A DNA stretch of 39,737 bases from an uncultured Brevundimonas sp. (GCF_943913055.1 NZ_CALTWS010000001.1:1-39737), one strand, 5' to 3'; shown: positions 20,821-39,737, counted from the first letter of the stretch. Program-made: numbers and translations. The notes: generated from the sequence alone by a model not told the origin.

Positions 20821-20827
20821 CGTGGCC

Positions 20828-21241: not shown

Positions 21242-21265
21242 TCTATCCCCAGTGTCTGTGCGCGA

Positions 21266-21928: not shown

Positions 21929-22038
21929 CGCTTCGTCTCTGGTCCGTTGCCGCCGCGCATGCAAGCCTGACCGGACCATCATCAGCATCGCCACGCTCTG
22001 GCCAATGTCAACCGTTCCTGTTACGCGTTACATGAAAC

Positions 22039-22719: not shown

Positions 22720-22734
22720 ACCGGGAGAGAAACC

Positions 22735-23481: not shown

Positions 23482-23484
23482 CCC

Positions 23485-24648
23485 TTGGAACGCCTGAAGT
23501 TCGACCCGCGCCCCGATTGGCAGGCCCGCGCCGACAGCCTGGGCTTCACCTGGCACCATGTGTCCGGTGAGCAGTACTGGGACGAAACCGCCGCCTATGC
23601 CTTTTCGATGCAGCAGGTCGAGGAGGATCTGGAGGCCCCGACCGAGGCCCTGCACGCCATGTGCCTGGATCTGGTCGACGAGGTGGTCAAATCCGAGCGG
23701 CTGATGGCCGACCTCGATATCCCCGAGGCCATGCGGGACTATGTCGCCGACAGCTGGAAACGGGGCGAGCCGTCGCTGTATGGCCGGTTCGACTTCTTTT
23801 ACGACGGCACCGGCCCGGCCAAGCTGTATGAATACAATGCCGACACTCCGACCTCGGTCTATGAGACGGCGGTGTTCCAGTGGCTGTGGCTGGAAGACCA
23901 GATCGCATCAGGCGTGCTGCCCGCCGCAACCGACCAGTTCAACAGCCTGCACGAGAAACTGGTCGCGCGTTTCCGCACCATCTTCCCCGATGGCGGCTTC
24001 ATGCATTTCTCGTCGGAGCCGGACTTCGTCGAGGATCGCCAGACCGTGCAGTTCCTGGAGGATCTGGCCAAGCAAGCCGGGCTGGATCCGCAATTCGTGG
24101 CCCTGGGCGACATCGGGCTGAATGCAGACGGGCGGTTCGTCGATCACGAGAACTGGCTGATCGGGGCGCTATTCAAACTCTATCCGTGGGAACAAATGCT
24201 GCGCGACGATTATGCGCGGCCCTTGCCGACGGCCGAGGTGACGGTGCTGGAACCGGCGTGGAAGAGCCTGATCTCCAACAAGGGCATCCTGCCCCTGCTG
24301 TGGGAGCGGCATCCCGGCCACCCCAACCTGCTGGAAGCCTATTTCGAGAGCGATCCGGCTCATGCGCGGCTGGGCGGGTCCTACGTCCGCAAGCCTCTGT
24401 TCTCGCGCGAGGGGGCCAATGTCGAACTGGTCGAGGGCGGCGTCGCCGACCCGGTTCTGGACGGCGGCTATGGTGACGGCATCCACATCCGCCAGGCCCT
24501 TCGCCCGCCCGCGCGGTTCGACGACAACCACGTCATCGTCGGCTCATGGGTCGTCGGCAACGAGGCCGCCGGTATCGGCCTGCGCGAGGACGAGACGCGC
24601 GTCACCCGCAACACCTCGCGCTTCCTGCCGCACTTCATCCGGGACTGA
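23485..24648 (+). CDS. Glutathionylspermidine synthase-family ATP-grasp protein (YjfC/YgiC-like)
   Basis: YWDETAAY, LYGRFDF, EYNADTPTS, FKLYPWE, EPAWKSLISNK, KPLFSREGAN, RFLPHFI. TTG start. Confidence 0.92.
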   Translation: MERLKFDPRPDWQARADSLGFTWHHVSGEQYWDETAAYAFSMQQVEEDLEAPTEALHAMCLDLVDEVVKSERLMADLDIPEAMRDYVADSWKRGEPSLYGRFDFFYDGTGPAKLYEYNADTPTSVYETAVFQWLWLEDQIASGVLPAATDQFNSLHEKLVARFRTIFPDGGFMHFSSEPDFVEDRQTVQFLEDLAKQAGLDPQFVALGDIGLNADGRFVDHENWLIGALFKLYPWEQMLRDDYARPLPTAEVTVLEPAWKSLISNKGILPLLWERHPGHPNLLEAYFESDPAHARLGGSYVRKPLFSREGANVELVEGGVADPVLDGGYGDGIHIRQALRPPARFDDNHVIVGSWVVGNEAAGIGLREDETRVTRNTSRFLPHFIRD

Positions 24649-25170: not shown

Positions 25171-25311
25171 GCCCTGGTCGATCGCTTCGACTTCGACGCA
25201 GCCTGAGGTTAGACATTGCGGAAGATTGCCGCCGCACATGACTTCTGCCCCGTCGCGCACGTCAACCGCTTGCTCGGCTGCCTGCTCGATCAATATGCAG
25301 GAAGTCGACGA

Positions 25312-25359
25312 TGGTGGGTGATGTAGGGTTCGAACCTACGACCCGCTGATTAATAGTCA
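25312..25359 (-). tRNA. 3' fragment of tRNA-Lys (att site of the integrated element), not a complete tRNA
   Basis: Minus strand reads TGACTATTAATCAGCGGGTCGTAGGTTCGAACCCTACATCACCCACCA: 3' anticodon arm, T-arm GTAGG-TTCGAAC-CCTAC, acceptor strand, discriminator A and CCA. D-arm and 5' acceptor strand are absent. Confidence 0.85.
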
Positions 25360-25453
25360 TTAATTGACCTGTCCGGCCTCGTCCGAGATCGTCGGAAAAT
25401 CCTTGTATCTTGGGCATTTGAGATCCAACGTCGTCCGGCGACTTCCGGGGGTA

Positions 25454-25481
25454 TGTTCCCCGAAGTGTTACCCTGGGTAAC
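25454..25481. promoter_or_regulatory. Candidate integrase arm-type sites
   Basis: Direct pair TGTTCCCC (25454) and TGTTACCC (25466), with perfect inverted GTTACCC-t-GGGTAAC (25467-25481), between att and int. Confidence 0.45.
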
Positions 25482-25519
25482 GCGACTGGGGGCCGCTGAT
25501 ATGGGTTCAGGAGGTCTCG

Positions 25520-26758
25520 GTGGCGGGCGCAGTAGGGCTGACAGATGCGAAGATCCAAGGACTGAAGGCACCGGGAACGGGCCGGATCGAAGTGGCCGAC
25601 AAGGTTGTCTCCGGCCTCCGGATCCGCGTCGGCACGTCGGGCGCAAAGACATTCATTGTCCGCAAGCGCATCGGCGGGCGGATCGCCAACGTCACAGTGG
25701 GGCGATTTCACGATCAGCGGTTCAACTTGGCCGACGCACGCAGGAAGGCCCGGACGCTGCTCAACGATATTGAGGGCGGTGGCGATCCGAGGTCCGAGAC
25801 GCGCAAGAAGACAGGAGCGGGCGCCGGCACCGTCCGCGCGCTGTTCGAGGACTACAAGAAGGCGAAGGCCAGCAAGCGCTCGATTTCCGAGATCGAGCGG
25901 ATCTTCAACAAGTATGTGCTGCCGGAAATTGGCGACCGGCTTGCGGACAGCGTCAGCCGCGCGGACGTGACCCGGTTGATTGATGGTGTAGCAACGGGCG
26001 GCGCCAAGCCTACGCCGGTCATGGCGCGCGCGGTCGCCGCTCAGCTTAGCGCCTTCTATTCCTGGGCCATGCCGCGATTACATCGGCTGGAGGTCAATCC
26101 CTGCCGCGACGCCGGCAAGCCGGACAAACCAAAGGCGCGGGAGCGGGTCCTGAGCAATGATGAGCTGAAATCGCTTTGGACTGTTCTCGACGGCGAAGGG
26201 CTGCCTTGGGGACCCTCAGTGAAGCTGCTGATCCTGACGGGGCAGCGCCGTGATGAAGTGTTCAGCGCCGACCGGGCCGAGTTTGATCTGAAGGCGCAGC
26301 TATGGGTGATCCCCGGCGAACGGGCGAAGAACGGCAAGGCGCATCTTGTCCCACTGTCCGCGGCTGCGGTGGAGTTGATTGAGGCGGTGCCGGAGCTCGA
26401 TGGCAGCGCCAAGCTGTTTCCGAGCCGCTCCGATCCCAAACGCGGTGCTTCCGGATTCAGCAAGGCGTTAGCGCGGATCACCGCCCAAATTGTCCAGAAA
26501 CTGGGACCTATCGATCATTTCACCCTGCATGATTTGCGGAGGACGATGGCGACCGGATTGCAGCGCCTTGGCGTCAGGCTGGAGGTTACAGAGGCGGTGC
26601 TGAATCACGTCGCTGGCACCCGCGGTGGACTCGTCGGTGTCTACCAGCGGCACGAGTTCCTCGACGAGAAGCGGCATGCGCTGGACGCTTGGGCTGCAGA
26701 GGTTGAGCGGATCGCGAACCCCACGGCGCGTGGCAACGTCGTTGCGATCAATGGCTAG
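25520..26758 (+). CDS. int: Tyrosine integrase, P4-like with N-terminal arm-binding domain
   Basis: AGGAGG RBS; LTDAKIQGLK...GLRIRVGTSGAKTF arm domain; catalytic R (TGQRRDE), K (AKNG), HDLRR, LNH, Y (GVYQR). Confidence 0.95.
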   Translation: MAGAVGLTDAKIQGLKAPGTGRIEVADKVVSGLRIRVGTSGAKTFIVRKRIGGRIANVTVGRFHDQRFNLADARRKARTLLNDIEGGGDPRSETRKKTGAGAGTVRALFEDYKKAKASKRSISEIERIFNKYVLPEIGDRLADSVSRADVTRLIDGVATGGAKPTPVMARAVAAQLSAFYSWAMPRLHRLEVNPCRDAGKPDKPKARERVLSNDELKSLWTVLDGEGLPWGPSVKLLILTGQRRDEVFSADRAEFDLKAQLWVIPGERAKNGKAHLVPLSAAAVELIEAVPELDGSAKLFPSRSDPKRGASGFSKALARITAQIVQKLGPIDHFTLHDLRRTMATGLQRLGVRLEVTEAVLNHVAGTRGGLVGVYQRHEFLDEKRHALDAWAAEVERIANPTARGNVVAING

Positions 26759-27452
26759 CGGATGGGGAGTTCCTGACTGGCGTGACGCGAAAGCATACCC
26801 TGACCCCGGCGAGACGACAGTGCGTGAATGGTGGTGGGAGTTCACCCGCAGGAGGCCGGATTATCGCGCGCTATGGGACGCAGCGGCCCGTGTGGCGGGC
26901 TACGAACACCGGTTTGCTCCCGACGTCGACGAGTTCCGTCTGCGGTTCGAGCTATCAGTCATACACGATCCGGCGCGCCGGCTGACTGACTGGCAGCTGA
27001 TACACTTTCGCGTCCCCCGGAATTTTGCGCGATCGCACCTGGAACCTGTGTTGGAGCAAGTCGAAAGACTTCTTGAAAGTCCCTATGGGGAGCAGACTCT
27101 GGAGATGGTCGCTCAGGGGCGAAAGATCTCCGACGATGAAAATCAGATCCTTTTCAACTTCGACCTGTCACGCCCGCTCAAGCCGCAGCTGGACGTGGCT
27201 GCACGGTACCTGACCGAGGTGCAGCGGGAGAAATTTGGCAAGGTCGCGACACGGCGGCCGCGGCGGACTAACTGGCCCGAGTTCCTGCGGGCGATCGACG
27301 CTCGTGACGCCGGCGCGACGTACCGAGAGATGCGTGACGTATTCTGGCCGGATCGTTCCCCTCGGAAGGACGGTCGGGAGCAAAAGACGGAGCAGAACGC
27401 GCGCGACGTTCATGCGGCTGCGTGCAAGCTGCGAGACAACTTCCCCATATAA
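26751..27452 (+). CDS. FseA-like (DUF6499 + DUF2285) putative transcriptional activator, single reading frame
   Basis: N-terminal DWRDAKAY...WWWEFTRRRPDYRA resembles the DUF6499 AWEFLRRN motif; C-terminal FLRAIDARDAGATYREMRDVFWP resembles DUF2285. ATG overlaps the int 3' end. Confidence 0.65.
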   Translation: MASGWGVPDWRDAKAYPDPGETTVREWWWEFTRRRPDYRALWDAAARVAGYEHRFAPDVDEFRLRFELSVIHDPARRLTDWQLIHFRVPRNFARSHLEPVLEQVERLLESPYGEQTLEMVAQGRKISDDENQILFNFDLSRPLKPQLDVAARYLTEVQREKFGKVATRRPRRTNWPEFLRAIDARDAGATYREMRDVFWPDRSPRKDGREQKTEQNARDVHAAACKLRDNFPI

Positions 27453-27516
27453 TTCTCAACGCGGCGAGCCAGCGTCCGACCTAAGCCGGTGTCATCCGAC
27501 ACTGCGGACGACCAAC

Positions 27517-27699
27517 ATGCAAAAACTGCTTAGGCTACCTCAGGTGATCGAGCGGACATCCCTGCGCCGCTCGACAATCTACGAGATGATGCAGGGCGGG
27601 AGCTTTCCGAAGCCGGTTAAGCTGAACTTGCGTTCCAATGGCTGGATCGAAAGCGAGATCAGTGACTGGGTAGCCGCTCGAATTGCTGAGCGCGACTGA
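27517..27699 (+). CDS. alpA: AlpA-family excisionase/transcriptional regulator
   Basis: MQKLLRLPQVIERTSLRRSTIYEMMQGGSFPKPVKL...WIESEISDW, the classic AlpA pattern. Confidence 0.93.
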   Translation: MQKLLRLPQVIERTSLRRSTIYEMMQGGSFPKPVKLNLRSNGWIESEISDWVAARIAERD

Positions 27700-27701
27700 C
27701 T

Positions 27702-27833
27702 ATGGCGCTAAGAGCGAAAGTTGGACCGGGATCGTCCCCAGAAGATCGCCGCTCGTCGGGATTCACGGCCGTGTGGCCCGGCGAAGAATCAGGGGTGATT
27801 CAGACCGGGGACTCCGGGGCGCTGTTGCCATGA
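27702..27833 (+). CDS. Possible 43-aa coupling ORF
   Basis: MALRAKVGPGSSPEDRRSSGFTAVWPGEESGVIQTGDSGALLP exactly fills the alpA-helicase gap; its stop overlaps the helicase ATG (ATGA). Confidence 0.3.
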   Translation: MALRAKVGPGSSPEDRRSSGFTAVWPGEESGVIQTGDSGALLP

Positions 27834-28966
27834 GCGTCGCGCTAAAGGCGGTTCCAAACGGCTACGTACAGCTCCCGGTCGTCGATCTTGCTCGCTGGGC
27901 GGACTGCGAACCGCCGCCGCGGGATTTCCTTATACCGGGCCTTATCCCGAACGGATGTGTGACTTCGCTGTACGGCGATGGTGGATCGGGAAAGACCATG
28001 ATCGCCCTCTGGCTCATGGTCGCGATGGCTTGCCGCTATGGTGCAAAGTGGATGGACGAAACGCCTCTCGGGTTCAGGTCAGTCGGACTCTTCGCGGAAG
28101 ATGACGAGGCCGAATTGGTGCGCCGTGTGCATCGGCTATGTAGCGGTCTAGACGTCGACTTCTCGTGCGTGGCGCCGGGGATCATCATGGTGCCCGGTGT
28201 CGGCATGGATACCATCGTCGCCCATTTCCATGCCGACACAGGCGAACTCGTCATTACTCCAATCATGAGATCCCTGATCGACAAGGTGCGTGCAGAGGGC
28301 GCCTCGCTACTGGTTCTTGACTATGCAGCGGCCGTATTCGGCGGGAATGAACTCGACCGGTCCCAAGTCTCGGTTTTCATGCGGTGGCTAAATGCAGTTG
28401 CGCGAGAAGAGAACATCGCAATTTTGCTGTTGGGCCACCCCTCCGTCGATGGAATGAAAAGCTCCAGGGGGACGTCAGGGTCGACCGCATGGCGCAACCA
28501 AGCGCGCTCGTTTCTCAGCTTAACGGTCGACGATGTCCAAGACGACCCAAATGGCCGCCGTCTACTGACGCTTGCGCTGACCAAGAGCAACTACAGCCGC
28601 GCCGGGTGCGTCTTCAATCTGACTTTTGACGGCACGAGGTTCGAGGTTCTGTCCGCATCTGACGGGCCCCTCAGAGGGTCCAAGAGACCTCGCCTACCTC
28701 GGTCTCAGAAGGTCGCTTTGGACTCCCTGCAGAGGGCGGTGGTGGACGAAGGCATTTCGTCCCCTGGGGGCGGGGTGCCTGCTGATGCTCGATGCGTCCA
28801 GCTCAACCGCTGGCGCGAATACTCCTTCCAGAGCGGCATTAGCCAAACTGACACGCCTTATGCCCGCAAGAAGGCGTTCAGTAGGGCAGCGCAAGACCTT
28901 TTAGCCAAAGGGCTTGTGGGAGTCTGCGAGCCTTGGGTTTGGGCGCAATCGAAGGTGGGACAATGA
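27830..28966 (+). CDS. AAA_25/RepA-like SF4 helicase with a putative C-terminal DNA-binding domain
   Basis: FLIPGLIP, Walker A GDGGSGKT, AEDD, Walker B LLVLD, LLGHPS, SGSTAWRNQARS, KSNY. Confidence 0.88.
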   Translation: MSVALKAVPNGYVQLPVVDLARWADCEPPPRDFLIPGLIPNGCVTSLYGDGGSGKTMIALWLMVAMACRYGAKWMDETPLGFRSVGLFAEDDEAELVRRVHRLCSGLDVDFSCVAPGIIMVPGVGMDTIVAHFHADTGELVITPIMRSLIDKVRAEGASLLVLDYAAAVFGGNELDRSQVSVFMRWLNAVAREENIAILLLGHPSVDGMKSSRGTSGSTAWRNQARSFLSLTVDDVQDDPNGRRLLTLALTKSNYSRAGCVFNLTFDGTRFEVLSASDGPLRGSKRPRLPRSQKVALDSLQRAVVDEGISSPGGGVPADARCVQLNRWREYSFQSGISQTDTPYARKKAFSRAAQDLLAKGLVGVCEPWVWAQSKVGQ

Positions 28967-29048
28967 ACAAGACAGAATGTCCCGCGGGACATGTCCAGAG
29001 GGCGACAATCGGGACACCCCTAAAGGGGGAGTGTCCCTCTTGTCCCAC
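28955..29048. repeat. Iteron-like GGGACA/TGTCCC cluster, putative replication origin
   Basis: GGGACA at 28957, 28986, 29011; TGTCCC at 28978, 29032, 29041; outer inverted repeat GTGGGACAA/TTGTCCCAC; located at the helicase 3' end. Confidence 0.6.
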
Positions 29049-29168
29049 CCCTCCTGCCCGCGTTCGTCTCAAGTTCGACGAAGCGAGTGCCCGCGTTCTG
29101 TGCAGAGATGATGCGATGGGAGCCGAGGACTCCCTTCGCGAACCAGTTGCGCAAGGGGCAGGCTCAAA

Positions 29169-29260
29169 GGGGGGAGGGGCATGAAAAGTCCGAAACTGCA
29201 GTCGCGGAGACCGGTGCCGGGGCCGCTTTTTCACAGAGCGCAAGTTTCGAGGTGGGGGTC
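29169..29260 (+). other. Putative cos-like packaging region
   Basis: G-run followed by AAAAGTCCG, GAGACCGGTGCCG, TTTTTCAC and a second G-run, directly upstream of a P27-type terS. Resembles the layout ahead of terS in HK97-like cos phages. Confidence 0.5.
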
Positions 29261-29293
29261 GAGATATCCGACTTGATGTGAATGGAGCTGAGC

Positions 29294-29788
29294 ATGGGGA
29301 AGCGTGGTCCACGTCCGAAGCCGAGTGCGCTTAGGCTGCTCGAGGGCGGCAATCGGGGCAGGCGCCCCTTGCCTCTGAATGAGCCTCAACCGTCGCGACC
29401 GGCAGGGGTGCCCCCACCTCCGCCGTATCTCTCGGGCTACGCCCATACTGAATGGGAGCGGGTCATTGGAGATCTCTGCGCCACAGGGGTTTATGCCAAT
29501 ATCGACCAGACCATGTTGGCCGCCTACTGCATGGCCTACAGGCGTTGGCGTCTTGCAGAGGATCTTGCGTCCAGATTGTCCGCCCAAGATCCAACCATCC
29601 ACGGCGTTCTGATGAAGACGGAGGGTGGCAACGTAGTTCAGAATCCGGCTGTCGGCGCCGCTAACGTCGCCCGCCGAGACATGCTGCGCCTAGCGGCCGA
29701 GTTTGGGCTGACGCCATCTGGACGCGTTGCGCTAGATAACGGTAGGCAAGACAGCGATGACGCGGTGGCGCAGAAGTACGGCATCTAA
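29294..29788 (+). CDS. terS: Phage terminase small subunit, P27 family
   Basis: MGKRGPRPKPSALRLLEG; PPPYLSGYAHTEWERV; LAAYCMAY; VQNPAV; AAEFGLTPSGR. GGAG RBS. Confidence 0.92.
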   Translation: MGKRGPRPKPSALRLLEGGNRGRRPLPLNEPQPSRPAGVPPPPPYLSGYAHTEWERVIGDLCATGVYANIDQTMLAAYCMAYRRWRLAEDLASRLSAQDPTIHGVLMKTEGGNVVQNPAVGAANVARRDMLRLAAEFGLTPSGRVALDNGRQDSDDAVAQKYGI

Positions 29789-29813
29789 AGCGCCGCGACG
29801 GCTAAGCGCCTGC

Positions 29814-29922
29814 AGCGGACGTTGGACCCGTGACCCGAAAGCAGACCTTGACGTGATGATGATGGACGTCCGTTGGACTTTCCTGTCGGCGCGGTGGTCT
29901 CCTTGGGAACCAGCAGACATTG
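29814..29922 (+). repeat. Three short direct repeats AGCRGACNTTG
   Basis: AGCGGACGTTG (29814), AGCAGACCTTG (29840), AGCAGACATTG (29912). Confidence 0.45.
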
Positions 29923-29976
29923 AGCGGCACCTGCGTTAGCGTCCCCGCATTTTCCAACGATCGAGACGAGAGCACC

Positions 29977-30675
29977 ATGGGACGGCCACGCCACTACAGC
30001 GCGGAGATACCGGCCCGATGTCAGGCGCTCATCGAAATGCTAGGTACTGCGGTCGAGGAAGCGTCTGATCCGAACGGGCGCTGGGGCGGGCCGCTGAAAA
30101 CCACCTTCTTGATGGCGATGGCGACGCCGATGATCGCACTGCCGATCGAGCGGATATTCAAGCCGGCGCGCGACAACCACGAAGGGGTCGCGGATGATCG
30201 GGAGCTTGATCCAGATCTGTCTGGTCAAGTGGCTCACGAACTGGGGCCGGCGCGGCCGTTCGGATCCGCCCCCTTTTTCGAGCGCGGAGCCTGGGCCTAT
30301 ATTCCTACTATCGGCCCGTTCAACGTCGCCGGGGACTGGCCTGCTCGGGCCTTGGTCCCCCTAAGGTCTGCAGCCGCGGCCGAGGCTGCAGCCGAGGCAC
30401 CAGCCCGGGTCATCCTCCTCGCCTTGCGTAACGCTTTGAGCCACGGCGGAGTCACCTACCTGGATCGGAACGGAGGCCATGCCGATTACGCGACCCACAT
30501 GCTGGGATTCGCCAGCCTAGCGAGGGCCCGTCATCCTGAGTTGCGTTTGCTGCGCGTTGGGGTCCCCGAGTTTGAGACCTTTCTGCGGCTTTGGGCGAAT
30601 TGGCTCTCGTCTGCGGGTGTCATAGACCAACTTGAAAGGCGCGGTCCGGGGCACTTTCAGTTCGCTGCCGAGTGA
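29977..30675 (+). CDS. Hypothetical protein, putative HEPN-family nuclease
   Basis: Rx4H motif in LRNALSHG preceded by helical TTFLMAMATPMIALPIE, reminiscent of pEK499_p136-type HEPN proteins. Confidence 0.55.
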   Translation: MGRPRHYSAEIPARCQALIEMLGTAVEEASDPNGRWGGPLKTTFLMAMATPMIALPIERIFKPARDNHEGVADDRELDPDLSGQVAHELGPARPFGSAPFFERGAWAYIPTIGPFNVAGDWPARALVPLRSAAAAEAAAEAPARVILLALRNALSHGGVTYLDRNGGHADYATHMLGFASLARARHPELRLLRVGVPEFETFLRLWANWLSSAGVIDQLERRGPGHFQFAAE

Positions 30676-30698
30676 CCCGGCGAGACGAATAGACCGGA

Positions 30699-31559
30699 TC
30701 AGATCTGAAAGAGGCTGCGCAACTCTGTCGTCTCGAGCAGCCGCGCGCGATCAGTGACCCGGACATCGGCGATCACGTCTTCGGTGAGATAGGCCGCGAC
30801 CGCGTCCGCCTCGGACTTGTTTGGGCAGACGACCCAATCTCGGGCCATGCGCATGGCGCACCGACGGACCAAGTCGGCCAGATCGGCTTTATCCGAGCCA
30901 TCTCGCACCTCGACCGAAAACCGCCCTTCGCGACCATCCAGATCCGGCGCGAAGACCATTAGGCATCGGGGCGCCAAGGCAAAGAAGGCCATGGGCTTGT
31001 GCTCTGCTTGTGGAGTCAGGTCCCAAAACGGTTGGTCGTTGGTGAGCAACCGTATCGGCGTATTACGCAGAATCACAATGCGGCCGCTTTTGAAGAATCG
31101 CATGCGGTCGTGAGCGACTGCATAGATGCTGTTGAGCACCGCCAAGCGTGCCTCTTCATCGGTCAGGCCGGGATCCTGCGCCTTTAGGATCACTTCGAGT
31201 TCTCGAACGGCGTGGGCGCTGCGGTAGCCCGAGCTCACGATGCTCTCCAAGGCTCTGTAGACGACGCGCGGCTTGGGCCCTCGCTTCCCGCTCGCGGCTT
31301 GGGCTCGGGCCAGGTCGCACAGCGCTCCTTCGTTCTCGGCGAGCCAATTCTCGAAGCGATCGTCGCGTTGACCGTTTACGTAGACCGGGGCGTACAGATC
31401 TCGGCTAATAGCGAACGATGCCTTCAGGCCCGGCGAGAAGCGCACGGCGCGGGTGGGGATATCGAAGTACCAAATGCCGACCCGCTGCTTGTCGTCGGTC
31501 GACGACCAGCCCGCAAGGTATCCTCGGGTGACCACGTGATTATTGCGCTTGAGAGACAA
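30699..31559 (-). CDS. DUF4238-domain protein
   Basis: N-terminal NHVVTRGYLAGW (HYVPxxYLxxF-like), RDLY, ENWLAENE, and LLTNDQPF (TSDxP-like). AGGA precedes a TTG start. Confidence 0.7.
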   Translation of the reverse strand: MSLKRNNHVVTRGYLAGWSSTDDKQRVGIWYFDIPTRAVRFSPGLKASFAISRDLYAPVYVNGQRDDRFENWLAENEGALCDLARAQAASGKRGPKPRVVYRALESIVSSGYRSAHAVRELEVILKAQDPGLTDEEARLAVLNSIYAVAHDRMRFFKSGRIVILRNTPIRLLTNDQPFWDLTPQAEHKPMAFFALAPRCLMVFAPDLDGREGRFSVEVRDGSDKADLADLVRRCAMRMARDWVVCPNKSEADAVAAYLTEDVIADVRVTDRARLLETTELRSLFQI

Positions 31560-31734
31560 CGGCTAAATCCTAGGAGTCTTGGCTTGGCGGGAGGGGGCCA
31601 AGGCGGCGTAGCGCCGGAACGGGACATTGACGCTGCTCCCAATGGAAGAAGCTTGCTGCGCGCGATTACGGGCAATGGCCGAGCTCAGCAGCAAAGCGGT
31701 GCCGATCATCACCGCCTGCGAGCACAGACCGCCG

Positions 31735-32472
31735 TCACGTCTTCGCTCCCTCCGCCTTCGGCTTTGGCTTTAAGCCCACCTCTGCCCGCGAGAGCTCTTC
31801 CTGGGCCCCGCGCAGCTGTTCAGAGAGCTCCCCGGACAGGGCGCCGGACAGTGCGACCAAAGCGTCGAGTTTGCGTACGCGGCTCTGGAGCCAGTCCACC
31901 CGACTCTTCAAACCTTCGACCGCCCGATCCTCGCCTGACCGCAGGAAGGTGATGATCGTGCGCTCGGGCCCGTCTTCACCCAGGGCTTCGCGCGCGGTGT
32001 CGAGCCAGGCCTCGCCGGTCTCGATGCTCTCGTCCAGGGCCCGTCTCAGACAATAGCGGATCAGTTCGCGGGCAGAATCGTCGATGATAGCGGCGAGCTC
32101 GATCCACTGCCGTCCTTCCTTCGAGGGCCGGCTCGCCGACATTGCGCCCTGAAGCGGCGAGGCGTAGCGAAAGGGCGTCCTGTCCGGCTCCAGGGCGAGG
32201 ATGGCCCCCTCCAGCGCCCTGAGATCGTCGAACGCGGGTATGGCCGGCTCGAGCTCGTGGCGATGAGCCCATACTTCGAGGACAGCTTCGGCGCATTGCC
32301 TCGCTAGAGCGTCCCGAGTTTCGGGGGTCGCCGTCTCCACGGCGAGCATTCGCTCGGCGAGGTAGTGCGCCATCCAACCGGCCAACAGGTCGTTGTCCGG
32401 TTCGAACTCAAGGTGTTCGACCAGCTTTCTCCCGAGTGCGATGACGGCGGCGTCAGAGGGTTCGGATGCCAT
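31735..32472 (-). CDS. avs3b: AVAST type 3 accessory protein Avs3b
   Basis: VIALGRKLVEHL...DLLAGWMAHYLAE...CAEAVLEVWAHR...IDDSARELI; overlaps the avs3a 3' end by 20 nt. Confidence 0.85.
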   Translation of the reverse strand: MASEPSDAAVIALGRKLVEHLEFEPDNDLLAGWMAHYLAERMLAVETATPETRDALARQCAEAVLEVWAHRHELEPAIPAFDDLRALEGAILALEPDRTPFRYASPLQGAMSASRPSKEGRQWIELAAIIDDSARELIRYCLRRALDESIETGEAWLDTAREALGEDGPERTIITFLRSGEDRAVEGLKSRVDWLQSRVRKLDALVALSGALSGELSEQLRGAQEELSRAEVGLKPKPKAEGAKT

Positions 32473-35400
32473 CAGGGCTCACCAGATAGATGCGGAAGTA
32501 AGGCCACGGGAATTCGATCACGCCATCATTGCGGTCCTTGGCGTAGGTGGCGCGCTCCACCGATCGTCGCAGCGACACGGCAAGGATCAGATCTTCGCCT
32601 CGCGCCTCGAGGAGGTCTGCGAGACGGCCGCGATCAACGGTCAGCCTGTCCCCCGGGTGGTTTTCGTGCTCGCGCCCCCGGCGCGACGTCCACGTCCACG
32701 ATTCCGCCCGGAACATCTCGCCGCAGGAATCCCGCCAAACGCGACCTTCCGCGTCTGCAGTCAAGCCGAGCGCCGCGACAAGGTCATCACCTGGGCGCGG
32801 CCCGGGCCAGCCAAGGCTTCCACCGACCCAGCCGTCGCGCTCGTCCAGTCCCTTCTCGGGCGACGGCTCCCGAATCCAGCCTTTCAGGCGCAGCGCACCG
32901 CGGCCGATCTCGTCGTCCCCAGCGGAAGGCAGGCTGTAGACATTGAACTCCCCGCTGAGCTGCATCGATCTCAGAAGCGACGGTCCGCCGGCCCTTGAGA
33001 CGAACGCACTGCGAAGGGTTACCTGCTCCTGACGGTTTTCGTCGCCGGACGTCCAGCTCCCCCAGACACAGAGATCGGGCTCGTCCAGGCGAACGATCGC
33101 ATCCAGTCGGCGTCGGCTGATACCCCAGCGCCAGGTATGATCGTCATAGCTTTCAGGCGCCGGCAGGGGCGGAAGCCGGACGGGGTCGCGCCGATCCGAG
33201 ACCCACCGACCATCCGCTCGCGTTAGGCCTTCCCGCTCGAGCCATTGAGAAAACTCATCGGGAGCGCCGGGCTCCGCATAGGGATCGAGCCGCGTCGGCC
33301 GCGTCCTCAGAAGTTCACCTGCCGTCAGCATCAGCCCGTGATAGCCGTAGTAGTCACGAAGACCTTCGGAGGCTGGGGTCATGCCCTGACCTGCATAGGT
33401 TTCCATCGACTCGAAAATACCTCGGTTGTGTCGCGGGTCGTCCCGCACGTCGTCGCGCCCCGCCACGCCGAAGACGCGCTCGACCTGCAGGGTCGCCATA
33501 TGTTCGACGCGGGCGGTCGAGGCTCCGAAGCAACGGCCGAGCGGGGAGAACATGTATCGCCCGGCGTCCAGGCCGAAGGCATAGGTTTCCTTGAGCGCGT
33601 CGGTTTTATCGCCGTCGGCGTCATAGTCCGAGCGACTGACCGCGACCGGGGCGCTCGCGGGGGCGTTGATCGCCTCGAGCCATCGCTGTTCCGTGGGCTC
33701 GAGCACCACCCTCCCCGACCGCCCATGCGTCAAGATCAGCTCCGCCGCCAATCCGCGGATCAGCACGTGATCCGTCTCTAACCAAGCCCGGGCCAAGCCC
33801 ACCGTTTCCGCAGACAGGGGCGTGCAGCCATCCACGGCCGCGCGGTTCAGTCCCAGGAGAAGCCACTGTCGGGCATGAAGCGCGTAGAAGGGCAGTCGTT
33901 GGTCCGCATAGGGTCCGGCGCCGCCCTGCCGGGCCAGATCGAGGAGCGGCGCCAAGGTCTCGACGACCCCCAGTTCGGCAAGCGCGCGCACCGCATGGGC
34001 GTGGGCCCATCTCAGCGTTCCGGTCGGCGAGCCCAGTCCCGTCCAGAGATAGCCGGCCAAGGCCGAACGCAATTCGGCAGGCGGGTGGAGGGCTTCCCGC
34101 CACTGGCCGTCCCCGTCCTCGTCCGTCAGCAGAGGATCGAGCAGTCCAAGACCGTAGCGAAGCCCTTCATCCGCTTCGTCGGGGGTCAGTTTTTCCGCCG
34201 CAAACCGCGCGAGCTGGAAAAGTCCATCTGCAGAGTACAGCCCGACGCCGTCCGCGAACCCAGCGAGCACCGCATCCACGATCTCCGCCCGGGTAACCAC
34301 TCCGGCCAACCGTTCGAGGTCCACCGTCTGGTACTGGGCGCTGAGGTAAACCTTGGCTGGATTGGCGCGACACACCTGCAATGCGACGCGCTTGATCGTA
34401 GACTTGACCGCGAGACGCGAGAGGGTCGCAATGGGGATACACTCGACCAGGCCGCGAAGACTGTAGGTTTCGAAATCCGGTAGTTGGCTGATGGCGAGGA
34501 CAACCGCGTCCTCCTGTCCGGCACCGGCGCGCGCGAAGGCCTCGCGGAACAGCTCATCCGTGCCCCAAGGCGCTTCGCCGGCCCTGACCCGTCGCTGGGC
34601 GGTGCGCATATCGTCCGCATCGGTCGGATCGAGCTTCTTGAAGATCGCGTTCCAGTAGGGTCGCCCCCGTTCTGACCGATCACCGCGCCACATCTCTTCT
34701 TTCGTGGGGTTGGCAACGGGGAAATCGCTCTCCGCCACCAGGGGCTCCGGCAGGTTGAGGACGCCCGGATCGAGCCCGAGGCGCACTGCCAGGCCCCGCA
34801 ATTCTTCGAGATCCTTCGCGGTTCTGGATCCCATTCTGAGATAGCGGAAGGCGATCGCGATCCCGGCCTCTCGCGTGTTTGCATCCGGTGCGGTCTCAAG
34901 GAAGGCGTCGAGTTGATCCTTGTGGTTCCAGAGGCCCGGCACCCCGGCGAACGCCAAGCTGTCCCGAGGCGTGAGTTGACCGCGCTTGATGAGGGCCTCG
35001 ACGGCTTCGGACAGGAGGCGCTCGTCGTCGCCGAAGCGGCGGTCGCGCCACCGACTCAGGAGGGTGAACAAGGACGCTGGATCGAGCCCGGCCACCGCAT
35101 CGATCGTCCCGTCCCAGTCGAAGTATTTGTCCCGGGCAACGAGAGACCGGGTTAGCTCCCCGACGCGGGACATGCGGTAGGCGGTCTCGGCGCGGGCGAC
35201 GCCGGGCGCTTCGGCAACGCGGGCCAAGTGCAGGAAACACTCCCAGCGCGGGATGTTCTCATCCCCGATCCGGCTGAGGATCTCGATGGCGCGATCAAAA
35301 TGGGCCCGGGCCTCTGGTTCGCTCACCGTGAAAATCGCCCTCGCTAGGGCCAACAGGCTTTGCCCTTGGGTATCGGCTTCGTCCCTGACCGCCTCGACTC

Positions 35401-38400
35401 GGGCGCGCGCGAGGCCCGCATAGTGGAGCGCGTCGCTCGCGCACCGCTTCGTGCGACCGAACAGGTGCGACATCCGGGTCAAGGCCTCAATCGTCGGCGT
35501 ATGCACCGTGCCGGCCACCCAGGCCCGAAGCGCGCGGCGCCGCTTGGCCGTAGCCATACCGTTACGGCAAAGGATCGCGGCTCGTTCGACGGCAATATCG
35601 CTCAGGGTCGAGAAGCCTTCGCGGTACTCGGACTGTCTCGCCTGTTCGGAGGCCTTCTCAGCCTGAACGATCCGAGCGTCGAGTCCGCCGGACGCCACCC
35701 GCCCGGTTACGACATCCGCCCCGAGGACGGACCAAGGCAGAATCGCCCCGGTCTCCGACTTGAAGATGCGGGCCTCCTCGCTACGACCGTAGGAGGCCAA
35801 GAGATCCTTACGGATGGCGTCGGACGCCAGATCCAGGAGATCGAGCGCGCCTCCGCGAAGTGCGGCGCGCAGGGCGTATGCGCGCAGAAGCGCGGGCTTT
35901 CCGTGCCCAAGCCGGGCGGACAGATCGTGAGGCAGTTTCTCCGGCACGACGCGGTCGAGAATCTGCGCCCAGGCCTCGAACTCCGCCGGTAAGGTCAGCA
36001 CCGCCGTTTCGATTGCCGCGGCGACGGCCTGCAAGACCGGCCATGGATCGCTCCACTCGTCGAGCTCCTTGAGCTTCAATCGCTTAAACGACAGAAGGCG
36101 GAGCAGTCGCTTCAGAGGTCCCGCGTCGAGAGCGCGTCCGGCGTTTCGGAGCTCCAGCGCTAGGGCGAGCAGGAGCCATACGTTGTTGCGCGCCCCAATG
36201 CCCAGTGCCTGCACGTCCTCGAAGTGTCCCAGATCAATCAGACGACGCGCCAGCATCCGCCCGGCGATGAAGGCCACAGGCCGGTGCGTCCAACGCCGCA
36301 GGAAGGCCGCCGCCTGCCGGGGGCCGTGGACGCGGAGAACGGCGTAGGCGAGGGTCACCCGGTCCTCGTGGTCCACAGTCTCGTCCCGCTCCCGCGGATC
36401 GCCGCGAGGCCGCCGCGCCCAGCTGTCGAGCCATTCCAGTGCCATACGCAGGCGGCTGGCCGCGTCGCCGGACAGCCGCGGATGATCCGCCATGATCGCC
36501 GCATCATAGGCGTGGTGGGCCCCCATCCAGTCAGACCCGAAGGTGCGTCGTGCGACCAGCTCCTCGACGCGATCGGGCGCTATCAGGGCGGATGCGAGTT
36601 CGACGTTGTTCTGGATCAGGCTGATCTGTCGGCCTTCACCGGCCGTCTCCCCGGCGGCCCTGACGGCGAGCTTCACCGCATCGAGATAGCGGTGGGTGCG
36701 GAGACAGGCTCTCAACGCGAAAATCAGCCGCTGAACCTCGACATCGCGTCGCTCGAGCGGATTGGTCTCGGGGAGGTCCTTGCCAGACAAGGCCAGGTCG
36801 ACGAGCTCCGCGTGAAATCCGCCGTCCAACAAGAGTTCGGGCAATGCGGAGGCGACGTAAGCGCTTTCAGAGGCCTGCGGACGCAGCGTCTCCACGAAAT
36901 CGATCAGTCGTTCACGTGGCGGCTTAAACGTGTCACGGAACCAGGTCTCGACGGGTTCATCCCGGAAGTGGAGGCTGTCTCCAGCGATCCGCAAAGGCGG
37001 ACCAAGGTCAGTAGCGAAGCTGCGGATCGCACCTTCGGGAACGTCGGACAGCTTCGCGAGGACGCCGATGGGAACCAGAGGTCTCAACGTCGCCAGCCCG
37101 ACGCAGATGCGATCAACCTGCTCGGCCGCCACGCCGCCTGTCTCGCTCTTGAGCTTGTTGACGGCGCCCTGCAGCAGCCCGCCGATGGCGGCGGCCACCG
37201 TGGTCGGTTCCGGCCCTAAAGCCTTGAGGACCGCGGACAAGCTGGCGTCGCCCTGCAAGGCGAGCGCTTGGACGCGGGGGTTGTGCGAGCTGAGGTAGGC
37301 GAACTCCGCCACGTCCTTTGGTGTCGCCTTGGAGAACCTGCTCCGAAGATGTTGCCCGGTCTCCATCTCATTGAACGGCTCAAGCTCAATGTGTTCAGCC
37401 TCGGCGGGCGGGTCGAAGTCGACGACACGATGGCTGCGGCTCGTGAACACCAGCCGAACGCCCTCAGGAATGGGCATGCGGATCAAGTCGCGGACGAAAG
37501 ACCCCGGATCCCCCTGTTCGCGCGCCGCCGTCTCGGCATTGTCCGCTGCATCCACGATCACGCAGATCACAGCGGTCGGGTCCAAGGCGCGGATGTGTCG
37601 CGACGCCTGTTCCAGCCGGTAGGCGAACGCCCGCATATAGCCCTTGGCGTCGGCGTGACCGGCCGGGATCAGCGGATGGCACCACCCTCGCGATGCCATT
37701 TCGTTAGCTATCTGGACAAGGCCGTCACGGTGGCGGTGCCGGAAATCCAGGGCGTTGCGGTAAAGCCCGACCCCGTAACAATCGTAGAGGACCGCGACGG
37801 AGCCCTTCGGCATGCCCTGGGCCAATCGCGCGGCGAGGACGGATTTTCCGACCCCACCGTCCGCATGGATGACGATCGGCGCCCCGGCTCCCAGGATTTC
37901 GCGGAGAATGTCAGGCTCCTGCTTTCGCGCGATTGTCCCATCCGGCGAGGGGATTCTGGACGGGGCGGGAAACAGGTCCAGTTCCGAGGTTTTCAGAGCA
38001 CGCAGGATGTCGTCACGCCGGATCGTCGGGTTGGATTCAAACTCCGTCGTGGCCTTCCGGGTGACCAACTCCTTGAGCTGAACAGGCCCATCGACATCCG
38101 CTTCGGGAAGATAGCCGCGCAGGTCCTCGCTCAGCATGTTGCGCTGGTTCCACACGTCGGGCGCGGAGCCGTCGAAATCCAGGAGGCTGAAGAAGGCTTG
38201 GACCTGCTTGCCCTTCAGACCGGTAAACCGGACGAGGCTCGCGGCTGTATCGGCGTAGGTTAGGGCGGTGCCTTCGGCCAGCTGCTTCAGTGATGTCAGG
38301 ATCGGCTTGGAGAAGCGCCGGTTGCTGATGAACTGGAACCGTACGCGACCGGACGAGAAGGCTGCCGCGAGCTGTTTGAGCCTTACTCTGTAGCGCGCGC

Positions 38401-38728
38401 CGAAGCCTGCGAGGGTTTTCTCCAGTTCCGCGGGCGTCCAAGACTTGTTGACCCGGCGCGTCGAGTGTTTGAGCTGGACATAGTGGATCGCTCTGGCGTC
38501 AGCCGGACGTTCACTGCCGAAGTAAAGTCCGACGTCGATGAGTTCGTCGCCCAAGAGACCATCGGGGCCCTCCTTGTCGACGATGGACGCGCCCTCGATC
38601 GTGACAGCGGTTAGCCCGGATTGCGGTGACAGGAGCTTGAGACTCTGACGCGCCGCCCACGCGTAGTGGAACTGGTCACCATCACGGCTCGCCCGTACGA
38701 GATCACTGCCGCTCGTTTCGGACGACAT
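32453..38728 (-). CDS. avs3a: AVAST type 3 anti-phage nuclease/STAND ATPase Avs3a (about 2091 aa)
   Basis: N-terminal LVRASRDGDQFHYAWAAR...ELIDVGLY...VQLKHST (PD-(D/E)xK-type nuclease); Walker A ADGGVGKS; Walker B VIVDAADN; long helical C-terminus. ATG 38728 is preferred over the ORF-track start at 38812. Confidence 0.9.
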   Translation of the reverse strand: MSSETSGSDLVRASRDGDQFHYAWAARQSLKLLSPQSGLTAVTIEGASIVDKEGPDGLLGDELIDVGLYFGSERPADARAIHYVQLKHSTRRVNKSWTPAELEKTLAGFGARYRVRLKQLAAAFSSGRVRFQFISNRRFSKPILTSLKQLAEGTALTYADTAASLVRFTGLKGKQVQAFFSLLDFDGSAPDVWNQRNMLSEDLRGYLPEADVDGPVQLKELVTRKATTEFESNPTIRRDDILRALKTSELDLFPAPSRIPSPDGTIARKQEPDILREILGAGAPIVIHADGGVGKSVLAARLAQGMPKGSVAVLYDCYGVGLYRNALDFRHRHRDGLVQIANEMASRGWCHPLIPAGHADAKGYMRAFAYRLEQASRHIRALDPTAVICVIVDAADNAETAAREQGDPGSFVRDLIRMPIPEGVRLVFTSRSHRVVDFDPPAEAEHIELEPFNEMETGQHLRSRFSKATPKDVAEFAYLSSHNPRVQALALQGDASLSAVLKALGPEPTTVAAAIGGLLQGAVNKLKSETGGVAAEQVDRICVGLATLRPLVPIGVLAKLSDVPEGAIRSFATDLGPPLRIAGDSLHFRDEPVETWFRDTFKPPRERLIDFVETLRPQASESAYVASALPELLLDGGFHAELVDLALSGKDLPETNPLERRDVEVQRLIFALRACLRTHRYLDAVKLAVRAAGETAGEGRQISLIQNNVELASALIAPDRVEELVARRTFGSDWMGAHHAYDAAIMADHPRLSGDAASRLRMALEWLDSWARRPRGDPRERDETVDHEDRVTLAYAVLRVHGPRQAAAFLRRWTHRPVAFIAGRMLARRLIDLGHFEDVQALGIGARNNVWLLLALALELRNAGRALDAGPLKRLLRLLSFKRLKLKELDEWSDPWPVLQAVAAAIETAVLTLPAEFEAWAQILDRVVPEKLPHDLSARLGHGKPALLRAYALRAALRGGALDLLDLASDAIRKDLLASYGRSEEARIFKSETGAILPWSVLGADVVTGRVASGGLDARIVQAEKASEQARQSEYREGFSTLSDIAVERAAILCRNGMATAKRRRALRAWVAGTVHTPTIEALTRMSHLFGRTKRCASDALHYAGLARARVEAVRDEADTQGQSLLALARAIFTVSEPEARAHFDRAIEILSRIGDENIPRWECFLHLARVAEAPGVARAETAYRMSRVGELTRSLVARDKYFDWDGTIDAVAGLDPASLFTLLSRWRDRRFGDDERLLSEAVEALIKRGQLTPRDSLAFAGVPGLWNHKDQLDAFLETAPDANTREAGIAIAFRYLRMGSRTAKDLEELRGLAVRLGLDPGVLNLPEPLVAESDFPVANPTKEEMWRGDRSERGRPYWNAIFKKLDPTDADDMRTAQRRVRAGEAPWGTDELFREAFARAGAGQEDAVVLAISQLPDFETYSLRGLVECIPIATLSRLAVKSTIKRVALQVCRANPAKVYLSAQYQTVDLERLAGVVTRAEIVDAVLAGFADGVGLYSADGLFQLARFAAEKLTPDEADEGLRYGLGLLDPLLTDEDGDGQWREALHPPAELRSALAGYLWTGLGSPTGTLRWAHAHAVRALAELGVVETLAPLLDLARQGGAGPYADQRLPFYALHARQWLLLGLNRAAVDGCTPLSAETVGLARAWLETDHVLIRGLAAELILTHGRSGRVVLEPTEQRWLEAINAPASAPVAVSRSDYDADGDKTDALKETYAFGLDAGRYMFSPLGRCFGASTARVEHMATLQVERVFGVAGRDDVRDDPRHNRGIFESMETYAGQGMTPASEGLRDYYGYHGLMLTAGELLRTRPTRLDPYAEPGAPDEFSQWLEREGLTRADGRWVSDRRDPVRLPPLPAPESYDDHTWRWGISRRRLDAIVRLDEPDLCVWGSWTSGDENRQEQVTLRSAFVSRAGGPSLLRSMQLSGEFNVYSLPSAGDDEIGRGALRLKGWIREPSPEKGLDERDGWVGGSLGWPGPRPGDDLVAALGLTADAEGRVWRDSCGEMFRAESWTWTSRRGREHENHPGDRLTVDRGRLADLLEARGEDLILAVSLRRSVERATYAKDRNDGVIEFPWPYFRIYLVSPDGIRTL

Positions 38729-38900
38729 CAAAGACAATCCAGAAGGTGCCACCAGAGCCTCTAAAGGGCACTCGCTGCCCGCCTTAGTGGAGCCGGTCGC
38801 AAAGAAAAACAACTCGACGGTGCTCTGTTGAAGGACAGTGCGTCATGATTCTCGCGTCGAACTTGGCCATCTGCAGGCAGCGGCGCGGGTGTCCCCGCCC

Positions 38901-39737
38901 TCACCAGCCGCGCCAGGCCCAATCCTCAATCGGCGGCAGTCGGTCAAACGGCGCCGAGCCGTCCAGCAGCGGATCCCGCACGTCCGCCTCCGCCAGCGCC
39001 CAAGCCCGCCAGCCGGGGTAGTCTTGGCTTGTCGCTACAGGCGAGGCGGCCGTGGCGGCGATGTAGGCGCGGATCGCTTCGGCCTCGCGATGACGCTCAG
39101 CCTGGTCGAGCAACCGCTTACCTAACGCCTCCTCCGCTTGGCGGTACGCTGTCTCGCGCCGTCGCTCAGCTTCAGCGGCCGCCCAGTCCGCCCTCCGCTT
39201 CGCATCGAACCGGCGGCGCTCGGCCAAGAACTCCAGCCCCGCCTCGATACTGGCAACAACTACCGGGAGCTGGCCTTCAAGCGGCGTCGTCAGCTCCTTG
39301 AACTCGGTCTGGATCGACAGCGACTCTCGGATTTTCAGGACCAAGTCGCCTGCCGGCACAGTGGCGCGCACGGTTTGACGCTTGGGGTCCCAACGCCGTT
39401 CGTCCTCAGTCGCCGGCCGGTGCACGATCTTGCCGCGCTCATAAAGCGCGAAGGGCAGGGTCTCGTCGCCGTCGGTCGCCGTCAGCAGCCCGCGCTCGGT
39501 CCCGACCACCAGAGACTTGCGCTCGAGTGCTTTTAGCACGGCGCTGGTCAGGCGCAGCCGGCGCTGAGCCAAGGGCGAGGTCAGGTCCTCGATATACTCC
39601 AGACCCCAACCGCGTTGGCGCGCTTCGCGGCGACGGCCAAGATTTTCGTCGATCCAGCTGCGGACGATCGGGTGGGCATGGCGCAGGTCTTTAGGCGGAG
39701 GGATCGGCTCGGCCTTTGCGAGGGCTGCTGCCAAGGC
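38901..39737 (-). CDS. Hypothetical protein (5' end outside the window)
   Basis: Frame is open to the window edge; HPIV...RRLRLTSAVLKALE, coiled-coil region, C-terminal WRAWALAEADVRDPL. Confidence 0.75.
   Translation of the reverse strand, partial: ALAAALAKAEPIPPPKDLRHAHPIVRSWIDENLGRRREARQRGWGLEYIEDLTSPLAQRRLRLTSAVLKALERKSLVVGTERGLLTATDGDETLPFALYERGKIVHRPATEDERRWDPKRQTVRATVPAGDLVLKIRESLSIQTEFKELTTPLEGQLPVVVASIEAGLEFLAERRRFDAKRRADWAAAEAERRRETAYRQAEEALGKRLLDQAERHREAEAIRAYIAATAASPVATSQDYPGWRAWALAEADVRDPLLDGSAPFDRLPPIEDWAWRGW

Follow-up and report, generated by a model that had tools for sequence, protein, structure and literature searches.

Little is known of the ways in which large defence islands pass from one bacterium to another, and the locus described here raises that question in a concrete and testable form. 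The stretch analysed, hereafter called the window, is the whole of contig C1 (39,737 nucleotides) of a Brevundimonas-like metagenome-assembled genome (MAG; G000, 287 contigs, 2.6 Mb). The right-hand part of the window belongs to a 39-kb island that carries at least four recognisable anti-phage systems and whose conserved backbone ends with a gene for a small terminase subunit (TerS) and a tightly constrained DNA element. The question is whether this island lives as a phage satellite resembling the phage-inducible chromosomal islands (PICIs) or, as would follow if no packaging takes place, is a defence island of the ordinary tRNA-integrated kind that has captured a phage gene. The anatomy, boundaries, conservation and selection pattern of the island were established, and from these sequence data a PICI-like satellite lifestyle is the reading that we favour, with about an even chance of being correct. 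If the constrained element is a TerS site, the locus would represent phage-mediated movement of a whole defence arsenal and would extend satellites to the Caulobacterales.

Position and extent of the island

The left end of the island was identified as a 53-bp direct repeat (att; 25307..25359, minus strand) that consists of a displaced 3' fragment of a tRNA-Lys(CTT) gene. The original prediction, which was made from the window alone, had noted a tRNA-Lys att fragment next to a co-oriented gene module, and the assignment was borne out by a match of 52 of 53 bases between this repeat and C48:7706-7758, where the sequence comprises the final 48 nt of an intact tRNA-Lys(CTT) gene (C48:7678-7753) and 5 nt downstream of it. 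No intact tRNA was found in the window by ARAGORN, and no further copies of the repeat were found in the MAG assembly. Because the tRNA fragment lies on the minus strand, the element must run rightwards to the intact tRNA-Lys gene, and extension in that direction, as had been proposed, reached this gene through contigs C196, C59 and C48 and allowed the remaining genes to be listed.

Ends of C48 and C59 shared an exact overlap of 55 bp. The link between C59 and C196 was a split BrxC gene (profile positions 5-803 on C196, with C59 starting inside the gene at 809-1180) and that between C196 and C1 was a split gene for a protein of about 370 aa, of which about 12 codons are missing between the two contigs; no exact end overlap was found for C196 with either C1 or C59, so that both of these joins rest on split genes. 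The resulting chain, C48(+), C59(-), C196(+), C1(-), contained 39,339 assembled bases from tRNA to repeat, to which two gaps, each a few codons long, must be added, on the presumption that one strain stands behind all four contigs of what is a metagenome bin. As assembled, the whole island is about 39.4 kb long and lies within the 3' end of tRNA-Lys(CTT) in this Brevundimonas-like MAG, and the window contains its integrase-proximal 14.4 kb. GC content was 59–64% at 25–30 kb of the window versus approximately 62–70% leftward, and the left flank (genes for PspA, glutathionylspermidine synthase and a LigT-like protein) was ordinary chromosome.

Backbone genes and candidate origin of replication

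Five backbone genes, int, orfX, alpA, the helicase gene and terS, were found in the same orientation on the plus strand. The first of these (25520..26758) encodes a P4-type tyrosine integrase (Arm-DNA-bind_3, 9.6e-14; Phage_integrase, 6.1e-15; phrog_1, 1.3e-53) that was 83% identical to the integrase of a tRNA-Lys island in another genome, G560; dN/dS was 0.10. The fourth (27830..28966) encodes an AAA_25 (RepA/DnaB-like) replicative helicase (PF13481, 2.5e-28; database model P0001, 378 aa). Matches of this protein to the PHROG primase/helicase families 906 and 239 covered the C-terminal helicase halves alone, and no primase domain was detected in it with Pfam or PHROGs. The helicase was at least 55% identical to members of 64 other clusters, the named ones being from Brevundimonas, and was present in 6 of 276 Brevundimonas species genomes, G000 included.

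Between these two genes, orfX (26751..27452; start taken from the Atlas record, giving a 233-aa model) encodes a putative FseA-like regulator with a DUF6499-like motif and a weak DUF2285 helix-turn-helix region, the RovC_DNA-bd/DUF2285 match of 22.9 bits being under the Pfam cut-off of 26.4. The N-terminal motif, WWEFTRRR (residues 27-34, encoded at 26835), occupies the position of AWEFLRRN in FseA, which is the hallmark of the FseA DUF6499 domain (PMC10359603). The nearest ESM-Atlas clusters (score 0.97) carried PF20109, with PF10074 in just 13–19% of members. Given the motif and these Atlas look-alikes, the label FseA-like appears reasonable. No motif of this type was present in the equivalent open reading frames (ORFs) of eight related loci. 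The next gene encodes an AlpA-family excisionase/activator (27235..27699 when the ORF is read from its first possible start; PF05930, 9.2e-18; phrog_2790, 1.1e-12), the true start of which is probably near 27487, with the domain at about 27523-27672; the protein shared 87% identity over 61 aa with AlpA of G560, which is 72 aa long.

Directly 3' of the helicase stop, an iteron-like block (28950..29050, without assigned strand) was recognised from a cluster of hexamers and from its conservation. The hexamers GGGACA/TGTCCC showed no overall excess in the window (22 versus 24.4 expected), and six of the 22 fell in 28957-29046. Corresponding counts after the helicase stop in related loci were nine (L017), eight (L018), nine (L019), five (L021) and zero (L020). 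A six-way alignment over about 90 bp contained many invariant columns and the palindrome GGGACACCCCTAWAGGGGGTGTGTCCC, and the block was kept in all six aligned loci, the helicases of which are just 59–69% identical. A scan for promoters and terminators returned no promoters and one terminator-like site, which is the iteron palindrome. From its position and conservation, we infer that the block is an initiator-binding origin, in agreement with the origin that had been placed here from the window alone.

terS and its upstream element

The last backbone gene (29282..29788, plus strand) encodes an orphan small terminase of the P27 family (168 aa; Terminase_4, 2.1e-23; phrog_83, 1.2e-36), with a TIGR01558 (NCBIfam, P27 family) score of 63.2 bits, over the cut-off of 45.6. 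This was the sole Terminase_4 protein in the MAG. The predicted places of int, the FseA-like regulator, alpA, the primase-less helicase and the lone P27 TerS were confirmed, as was that of the defence gene Avs3 described below.

Among the 276 Brevundimonas genomes, matches to this TerS at E<=1e-8 were found in nine, G000 included. Among those whose context was examined, four (G028, G506, G576 and G173) have the gene next to genes for a large terminase (TerL) and a portal, with protease and capsid genes also in G028 and a capsid gene also in G506; further matches were in G456, in G008 and in G598, the contig of the last being too short to judge. When the order was surveyed, 5 of 400 other genomes had a match, and in no case was the island module close to it. 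In genus and order, the TerS next most similar adjoin TerL-portal-protease-capsid genes, and the nearest prophage TerS (45–46% identical) belong to methylase-TerS-TerL-portal-S78 protease-capsid modules; of the two scanned, one (L012) has an HNH gene ahead of the module. We take modules of this type with HNH to be HK97-like and of the HNH-dependent cos type. As a separate observation, a 103-aa TerS fragment that is 94% identical to a prophage TerS of G267 was noted at about 9828-10136 of L014 (G164:C69); no TerL, portal or capsid match was found within 19.5 kb of it, and it may be a true relic.

The remaining match, in G490, was an orphan TerS 78% identical to that of the window. It lies on a 20.7-kb island between tRNA-Arg and a 48-bp repeat, in the order int (27% identical to that of the window), 213-aa ORF, AlpA, 77-aa ORF, TerS, DUF6615 protein and 1414-aa ORF, followed by genes for type I restriction-modification and for a PLD protein. 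Comparison of the two terS genes gave dN of 0.145, dS of 2.97 and dN/dS of 0.05, with dS saturated. terS of the window is intact and, judged from these values, under purifying selection.

Upstream of terS, about 110 bp could be aligned between the window and G490, and a conserved non-coding element (29172..29258, plus strand) was recognised from identical blocks, such as the 25-mer spanning 29234-29258 and a 14-mer at 29210-29223. The 25-mer, with up to three mismatches, was found in 3 of the 276 genomes (G000, G490 and G558), whereas a control with the reversed pattern gave none; the G558 match (three mismatches) was set aside as chance, since it falls within an ORF of 817 aa and terS is absent from its surroundings. 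Because these blocks are identical despite saturated dS, terS appears to move with a constrained cis element, which may be a site recognised by TerS (pac/cos) or else a promoter under regulation. The original prediction had put a cos site upstream of terS; a conserved element does stand at that location, and the cos role given to it is a guess rather than a finding. A comparison of the intergenic DNA flanking terS with five prophage loci revealed no cos-like sequence in common, the matches (12–15 nt) being at chance level.

A more far-reaching interpretation, which we offer tentatively and regard as doubtful, is that terS and about 90 bp of upstream DNA form a portable "get-packaged" cassette, carried by unrelated tRNA-targeting defence islands of phage-genome size that would be packaged unit-length in the full-size capsids of an infecting HK97-type phage. 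The cassette would then have been grafted onto one island with a helicase/iteron replicon (that of the window) and onto one without (G490). If this is so, whole multi-system defence islands, here with BREX, ZacABC and Avs3, would have a dedicated route of movement.

Related loci and the conserved unit

Seven loci of the helicase family were compared, namely the window, L017 to L021 and L028, five of them from genomes and L028 from metagenome contigs. A terminase gene followed the candidate origin in five of the seven, this being TerS in the window and L017 and TerL in L018, L019 and L028. L017 contained int, three small ORFs, the helicase gene and a gene for a short Terminase_4 protein (8.1e-08; phrog_83, 1.4e-10) without BLASTP similarity to TerS of the window, followed by an insertion sequence element at the contig end. 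L018 (4775-14849, 10.1 kb) and L019 (7584-19983, 12.4 kb) extend from tRNA-Ser to repeats of 18 and 15 bp, respectively, and have the helicase followed by an ORF of 134 or 146 aa and then by a large-terminase match of 474 or 493 aa (phrog_2, 4.5e-13 and 1.9e-15). A 774-aa protein with tape-measure-like segments was present in L019, and no capsid or portal gene was detected in either locus; these two may represent a different satellite flavour. The same helicase-TerL arrangement was seen in L028, a 2.4-kb contig.

In G560 (L021 and L056), the island is flanked by the same tRNA-Lys repeats as in the window (47–53 bp), with a repeat next to the integrase gene and an intact tRNA-Lys 20.2 kb away, and the chromosome past tRNA-Lys is syntenic with C48 (77% over 3.3 kb); the cargo comprises a TIR-KAP NTPase, type I restriction-modification, McrBC and an FRG protein. 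In L020, tRNA-Arg adjoins X, HTH_17 and helicase genes, with nuclease, FHA, protease and kinase genes as cargo. All bounded relatives were islands of 10–21 kb between tRNA repeats and not prophages.

The extent of the conserved unit was evident from contigs of a public sequencing run, X1 (from another study; 45% of sampled words). One contig covered 25328-27472 with 33 differing letters and a second covered 27444-29823 with 102 differing letters, followed by 1258 bases unlike the window, the identity of the module with that of the window being 96–98%. Because the similarity ends at 29823, the conserved unit begins at att and reaches 35 bp beyond the stop codon of terS, after which the two cargoes are different. 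Module pieces with 90–100% identity were also present in three further metagenome runs from two studies, one of which may be the source sample. All four runs were compared as Logan contigs, not as reads.

Structural and helper phage genes

The absence of terL, portal, capsid, tail and lysis genes, which had been noted for the window, was found to hold for the rest of the element as well. Domain searches of the 39.3-kb island with Pfam and PHROGs detected no terL, portal, capsid, protease, tail, lysis or HNH gene, and when 17 proteins of phage structure and packaging, taken from related prophages and elements, were used as tblastn queries, the best E against the island was 0.088. Components forbidden in PICIs (tail, holin, portal and connectors) were likewise not found across 39.3 kb, with no holin-directed search having been made, and none of the ORFs of the island matched a head or capsid family, as a capsid-morphogenesis gene would be expected to do.

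On a 6-kb contig of the MAG (C167:2932-6014; L047 and L049), a gene for a large terminase that has the domains Terminase_6N and 6C adjoins a portal gene, in a cluster that looks like the head cluster of an alphaproteobacterial gene transfer agent (GTA). Hijacking of a GTA was considered because this cluster holds the only large terminase of the MAG. It was set aside in view of the lack of any link between the P27 TerS and the Terminase_6 TerL; GTA heads, moreover, are small. Among phage records, the top TerS matches (42%, 103 aa) were to "Tetraselmis viridis virus" S20 and SI1, the records of which are 38,987 and 39,398 bp long; in the absence of evidence to the contrary, we regard their similarity in length to the island (about 39.4 kb) as coincidental.

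The satellite reading and its alternatives

In the satellite reading, the P4-type integrase would put the element into tRNA-Lys, and a phage- or signal-triggered FseA-like activator would switch on AlpA, which would then drive excision and expression, as AlpA has been shown to do for EcCICFT073 (PMC6092414). The AAA_25 helicase would replicate the circle from the iteron origin 3' of its own gene, and the P27 TerS would bind the upstream site and recruit TerL, HNH protein and capsids of an infecting HK97-type helper. Since the island is approximately of phage-genome size and has no capsid-remodelling gene, its DNA would fill full-size helper capsids, while the defence cargo would guard the host against other phages. 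The original prediction had arrived at a satellite of this kind, and it gains from the conserved iterons, the terminase gene in five of seven loci, the end of the backbone just past terS and the selection on TerS; packaging, helper and cos, like excision and replication, are steps predicted from the gene content.

Several observations weigh against the satellite reading. A usual PICI has only about a quarter of the length of this island, which is about 39.4 kb. L020 and G560/L021 contained no terminase gene and the G490 island no helicase gene, which indicates that neither module is obligatory for the island chassis. Saturation of dS means that part of the divergence between the two terS genes may predate their capture from phages. 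The core 21-mer upstream of terS had no exact match in a viral contig collection, in which a single TerS match (35% identical) was found, and the best TerS among 50,697 INPHARED phage records was 42% identical over 61% of the length. Helicase relatives in IMG/VR were limited to three loci, all 38% identical, with no close ones; a scan of the genes downstream, made for L025, showed phage head genes there. No helper phage was found: G000 had no PF03354 TerL over the cut-off, its only large terminase being the Terminase_6 gene of the GTA-like cluster, and a PF03354 TerL at E<=0.001 was present in none of the genomes of five relatives. Neither a circle junction nor an empty-site junction was found in the assembled contigs of the four runs. 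Finally, Avs3 senses phage large terminase (PMC13601566), which is the very protein that a satellite with TerS alone must borrow, so that the helper would presumably have to be spared. If the satellite reading is true, a borrowed TerL beside a resident TerL sensor bears on how satellites spare their helpers.

The strongest alternative, which we consider plausible although not probable, is a self-replicating integrative defence island, comparable to the cargo type of tycheposon platform, that is not a satellite and in which TerS is captured cargo. TerS would then serve in defence by packaging interference or have no role in transfer, and the island would be transferred by generalised transduction, GTA, vesicles or transformation. 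The defence-rich relatives without a terminase gene (L020 and G560/L021), the TerS without helicase in G490, the lack of a helper, the size of 39.4 kb and the GTA-like cluster in the MAG all fit this explanation, as do tycheposons, which include cargo-only forms not seen in viral fractions (bioRxiv 2020.12.28.424599). The position of terS, however, is within the conserved backbone and not in the variable cargo, the X1 similarity passing through the gene and stopping 35 bp later. Moreover, a terminase gene occupies the same slot in five of the seven family loci, the conserved non-coding element moves with terS between unrelated islands, and packaging interference would itself be typical satellite behaviour.

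A very unlikely alternative is an integrative mobilisable element, in which the FseA-like protein and an AlpA-type recombination directionality factor would control excision as in ICEMlSymR7A, an integrative and conjugative element (ICE), and transfer would be provided by a co-resident conjugative system. The WWEFTRRR motif and weak DUF2285 match of orfX point in this direction, and FseA-type regulators occur on conjugative elements across proteobacteria (PMC10359603). Against this, the ORFs of the island that were scanned included no gene for a relaxase, a coupling protein or type IV secretion, the FseA-like ORF is peculiar to this island, with eight related loci lacking the motif, and the helicase, iterons and TerS belong to types known from phages or satellites.

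A decayed prophage, stripped of its structural genes and keeping terS as a last relic, the explanation for which structural remnants or full-prophage relatives had been sought, is largely refuted and most improbable: P27 TerS occur otherwise in HK97-like prophages of the same genus, and L018 and L019 keep TerL, with the tape-measure-like protein in the latter, but no structural remnant was found anywhere in the 39.3 kb assembled, terS is intact and under purifying selection, several genomes and samples hold the same short backbone joined to other cargo, and the relatives are att-bounded units of 10–21 kb.

Comparison with known elements

The satellite reading places the island closest to the PICIs of Gram-negative bacteria. 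The PICI core as modelled by SatelliteFinder comprises integrase, regulator, primase-replicase, capsid-morphogenesis and TerS components, four of five defining type B (PMC10085698). Three of these are certain in the island, the integrase, AlpA (for the regulation component, an alpA, merR or stl homologue) and the small terminase having been found with the corresponding models, and the helicase may stand in for the primase-replicase. Likeness to type B PICIs such as EcCICFT073 was evident in the co-oriented int, alpA, replication gene, origin and terS, in the lack of structural and lysis genes, in the accessory genes past terS and in the lack of a visible repressor; EcCICFT073, too, does not remodel capsids, and those in which it is packaged are of full size (PMC6092414). 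The island, which is known here from sequence alone, differs in its helicase without primase, FseA-like regulator, lack of a capsid-morphogenesis gene and Caulobacterales host, and in size, about 39.4 kb for the whole element as opposed to a PICI median of 9.5 kb measured from integrase to last core gene (PMC10085698). A few non-enterobacterial hosts are named in the same source, Sinorhizobium among them.

Tycheposons, elements of Prochlorococcus and other marine bacteria, resemble the island in having a chassis of tRNA-targeting tyrosine recombinase and replication genes that occurs in a PICI-like flavour, with terS or a capsid gene, and in a cargo flavour (bioRxiv 2020.12.28.424599). Integration and replication modules are shared between these flavours (bioRxiv 2020.12.28.424599), and the Brevundimonas family shows the same split. 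In contrast with tycheposons, terS and a very large defence cargo are present here in one element, and the parallel is functional alone. In the original view, this combination of genes was not known as a described family; the type B PICI layout, with four of five core components if the helicase is counted, and the tycheposon parallel make the element less novel than first thought.

[quoted passage not shown] They are about one eighth of a phage genome in size, lie next to fis, encode a primase, lack terS and are packaged as concatemers (PMC10803314), whereas the island is about 39.4 kb long, lies in tRNA-Lys, carries terS and has no primase. P4-like satellites share the P4-type integrase, an AlpA/Vis-like protein and defence cargo (PMC8628076, PMC13586616). 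Unlike these, the island is without an alpha primase-helicase. P4 is not known to carry a terS. Capsid-forming PICIs (cf-PICIs) carry capsid genes, and none of the features of that group (own capsid, portal, protease, connectors and TerL) was found in the island. With respect to FseA of ICEMlSymR7A, orfX is similar in its WWEFTRRR motif (versus AWEFLRRN) and C-terminal DUF2285-like region and differs in being a single ORF without frameshift, in its DUF2285 score under the cut-off and in its location on a non-conjugative island.

A full-text literature search, the scope of which was the articles and not their supplementary tables, found no description of satellites in Caulobacter, Brevundimonas or Alphaproteobacteria. 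What sets the island apart is how large it is and how much defence it carries, together with its FseA-like regulator, a replicon that lacks a primase and has a conserved origin, and the putative portable terS cassette.

Cargo and flanking genes

About 35 kb of the island is cargo, most of it recognisably anti-phage (Avs3, BREX type I, ZacABC and a PDC-S71-like helicase). In the window, terS is followed by a 251-aa ORF (29920..30675, plus strand) without a Pfam, PHROGs, PADLOC or NCBIfam match and by a 286-aa ORF on the minus strand (30699..31559) with a weak DUF4238 match (PF14022, 5.5e-05; 23.1 bits, under the cut-off of 27) and no PADLOC or PHROG match. An Avs3 system, with full-length Avs3a and adjacent Avs3b as judged by PADLOC, follows on the minus strand. 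Avs3b (31735..32472) matched PDLC02168 (8.4e-49) over profile positions 6-225 of 238, and Avs3a (32453..38812), a STAND NTPase, matched PDLC02167 (E=0, 2244.6 bits) over positions 2-2086 of 2090, with a NACHT match of 2.3e-07.

The window ends in a minus-strand gene (38901..39737) for the C-terminal 278 aa of the protein of about 370 aa that links C1 to C196, the fragment being 94% identical to residues ~92-369 of P0121 (369 aa); the N-terminus, at C196:4758-4994, was identical to residues 1-79 of P0121 at 74 of 79 positions. This family has 57 database homologues, most of them 52–94% identical and the named ones from Brevundimonas or Alphaproteobacteria, and no domain match; its gene here sits between BREX and Avs3.

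Outside the window, the island contains the BREX type I genes for BrxB, BrxC (split between C196 and C59), PglX (two ORFs), PglZ and BrxL, together with ZacA, ZacB and ZacC and a 1223-aa helicase with a PDC-S71-like C-terminal part. ORFs of 83, 219 and 256 aa had no assigned function, the last of these being at the BrxA position and without a Pfam match, and a 251-aa ORF adjoins the intact tRNA. For each of the two consecutive PglX ORFs (L002, C59:1150-5231), PADLOC has a separate PglX model, of 640 and 682 positions, which was matched over its full length, and this arrangement may be a natural split form rather than a broken gene.

On the chromosomal side of the att repeat, positions 20200-24648 of the window contain a PspA gene with DUF2170, DUF350, DUF1190, DUF2491 and glutathionylspermidine synthase-like genes, an ordinary stress-response neighbourhood.

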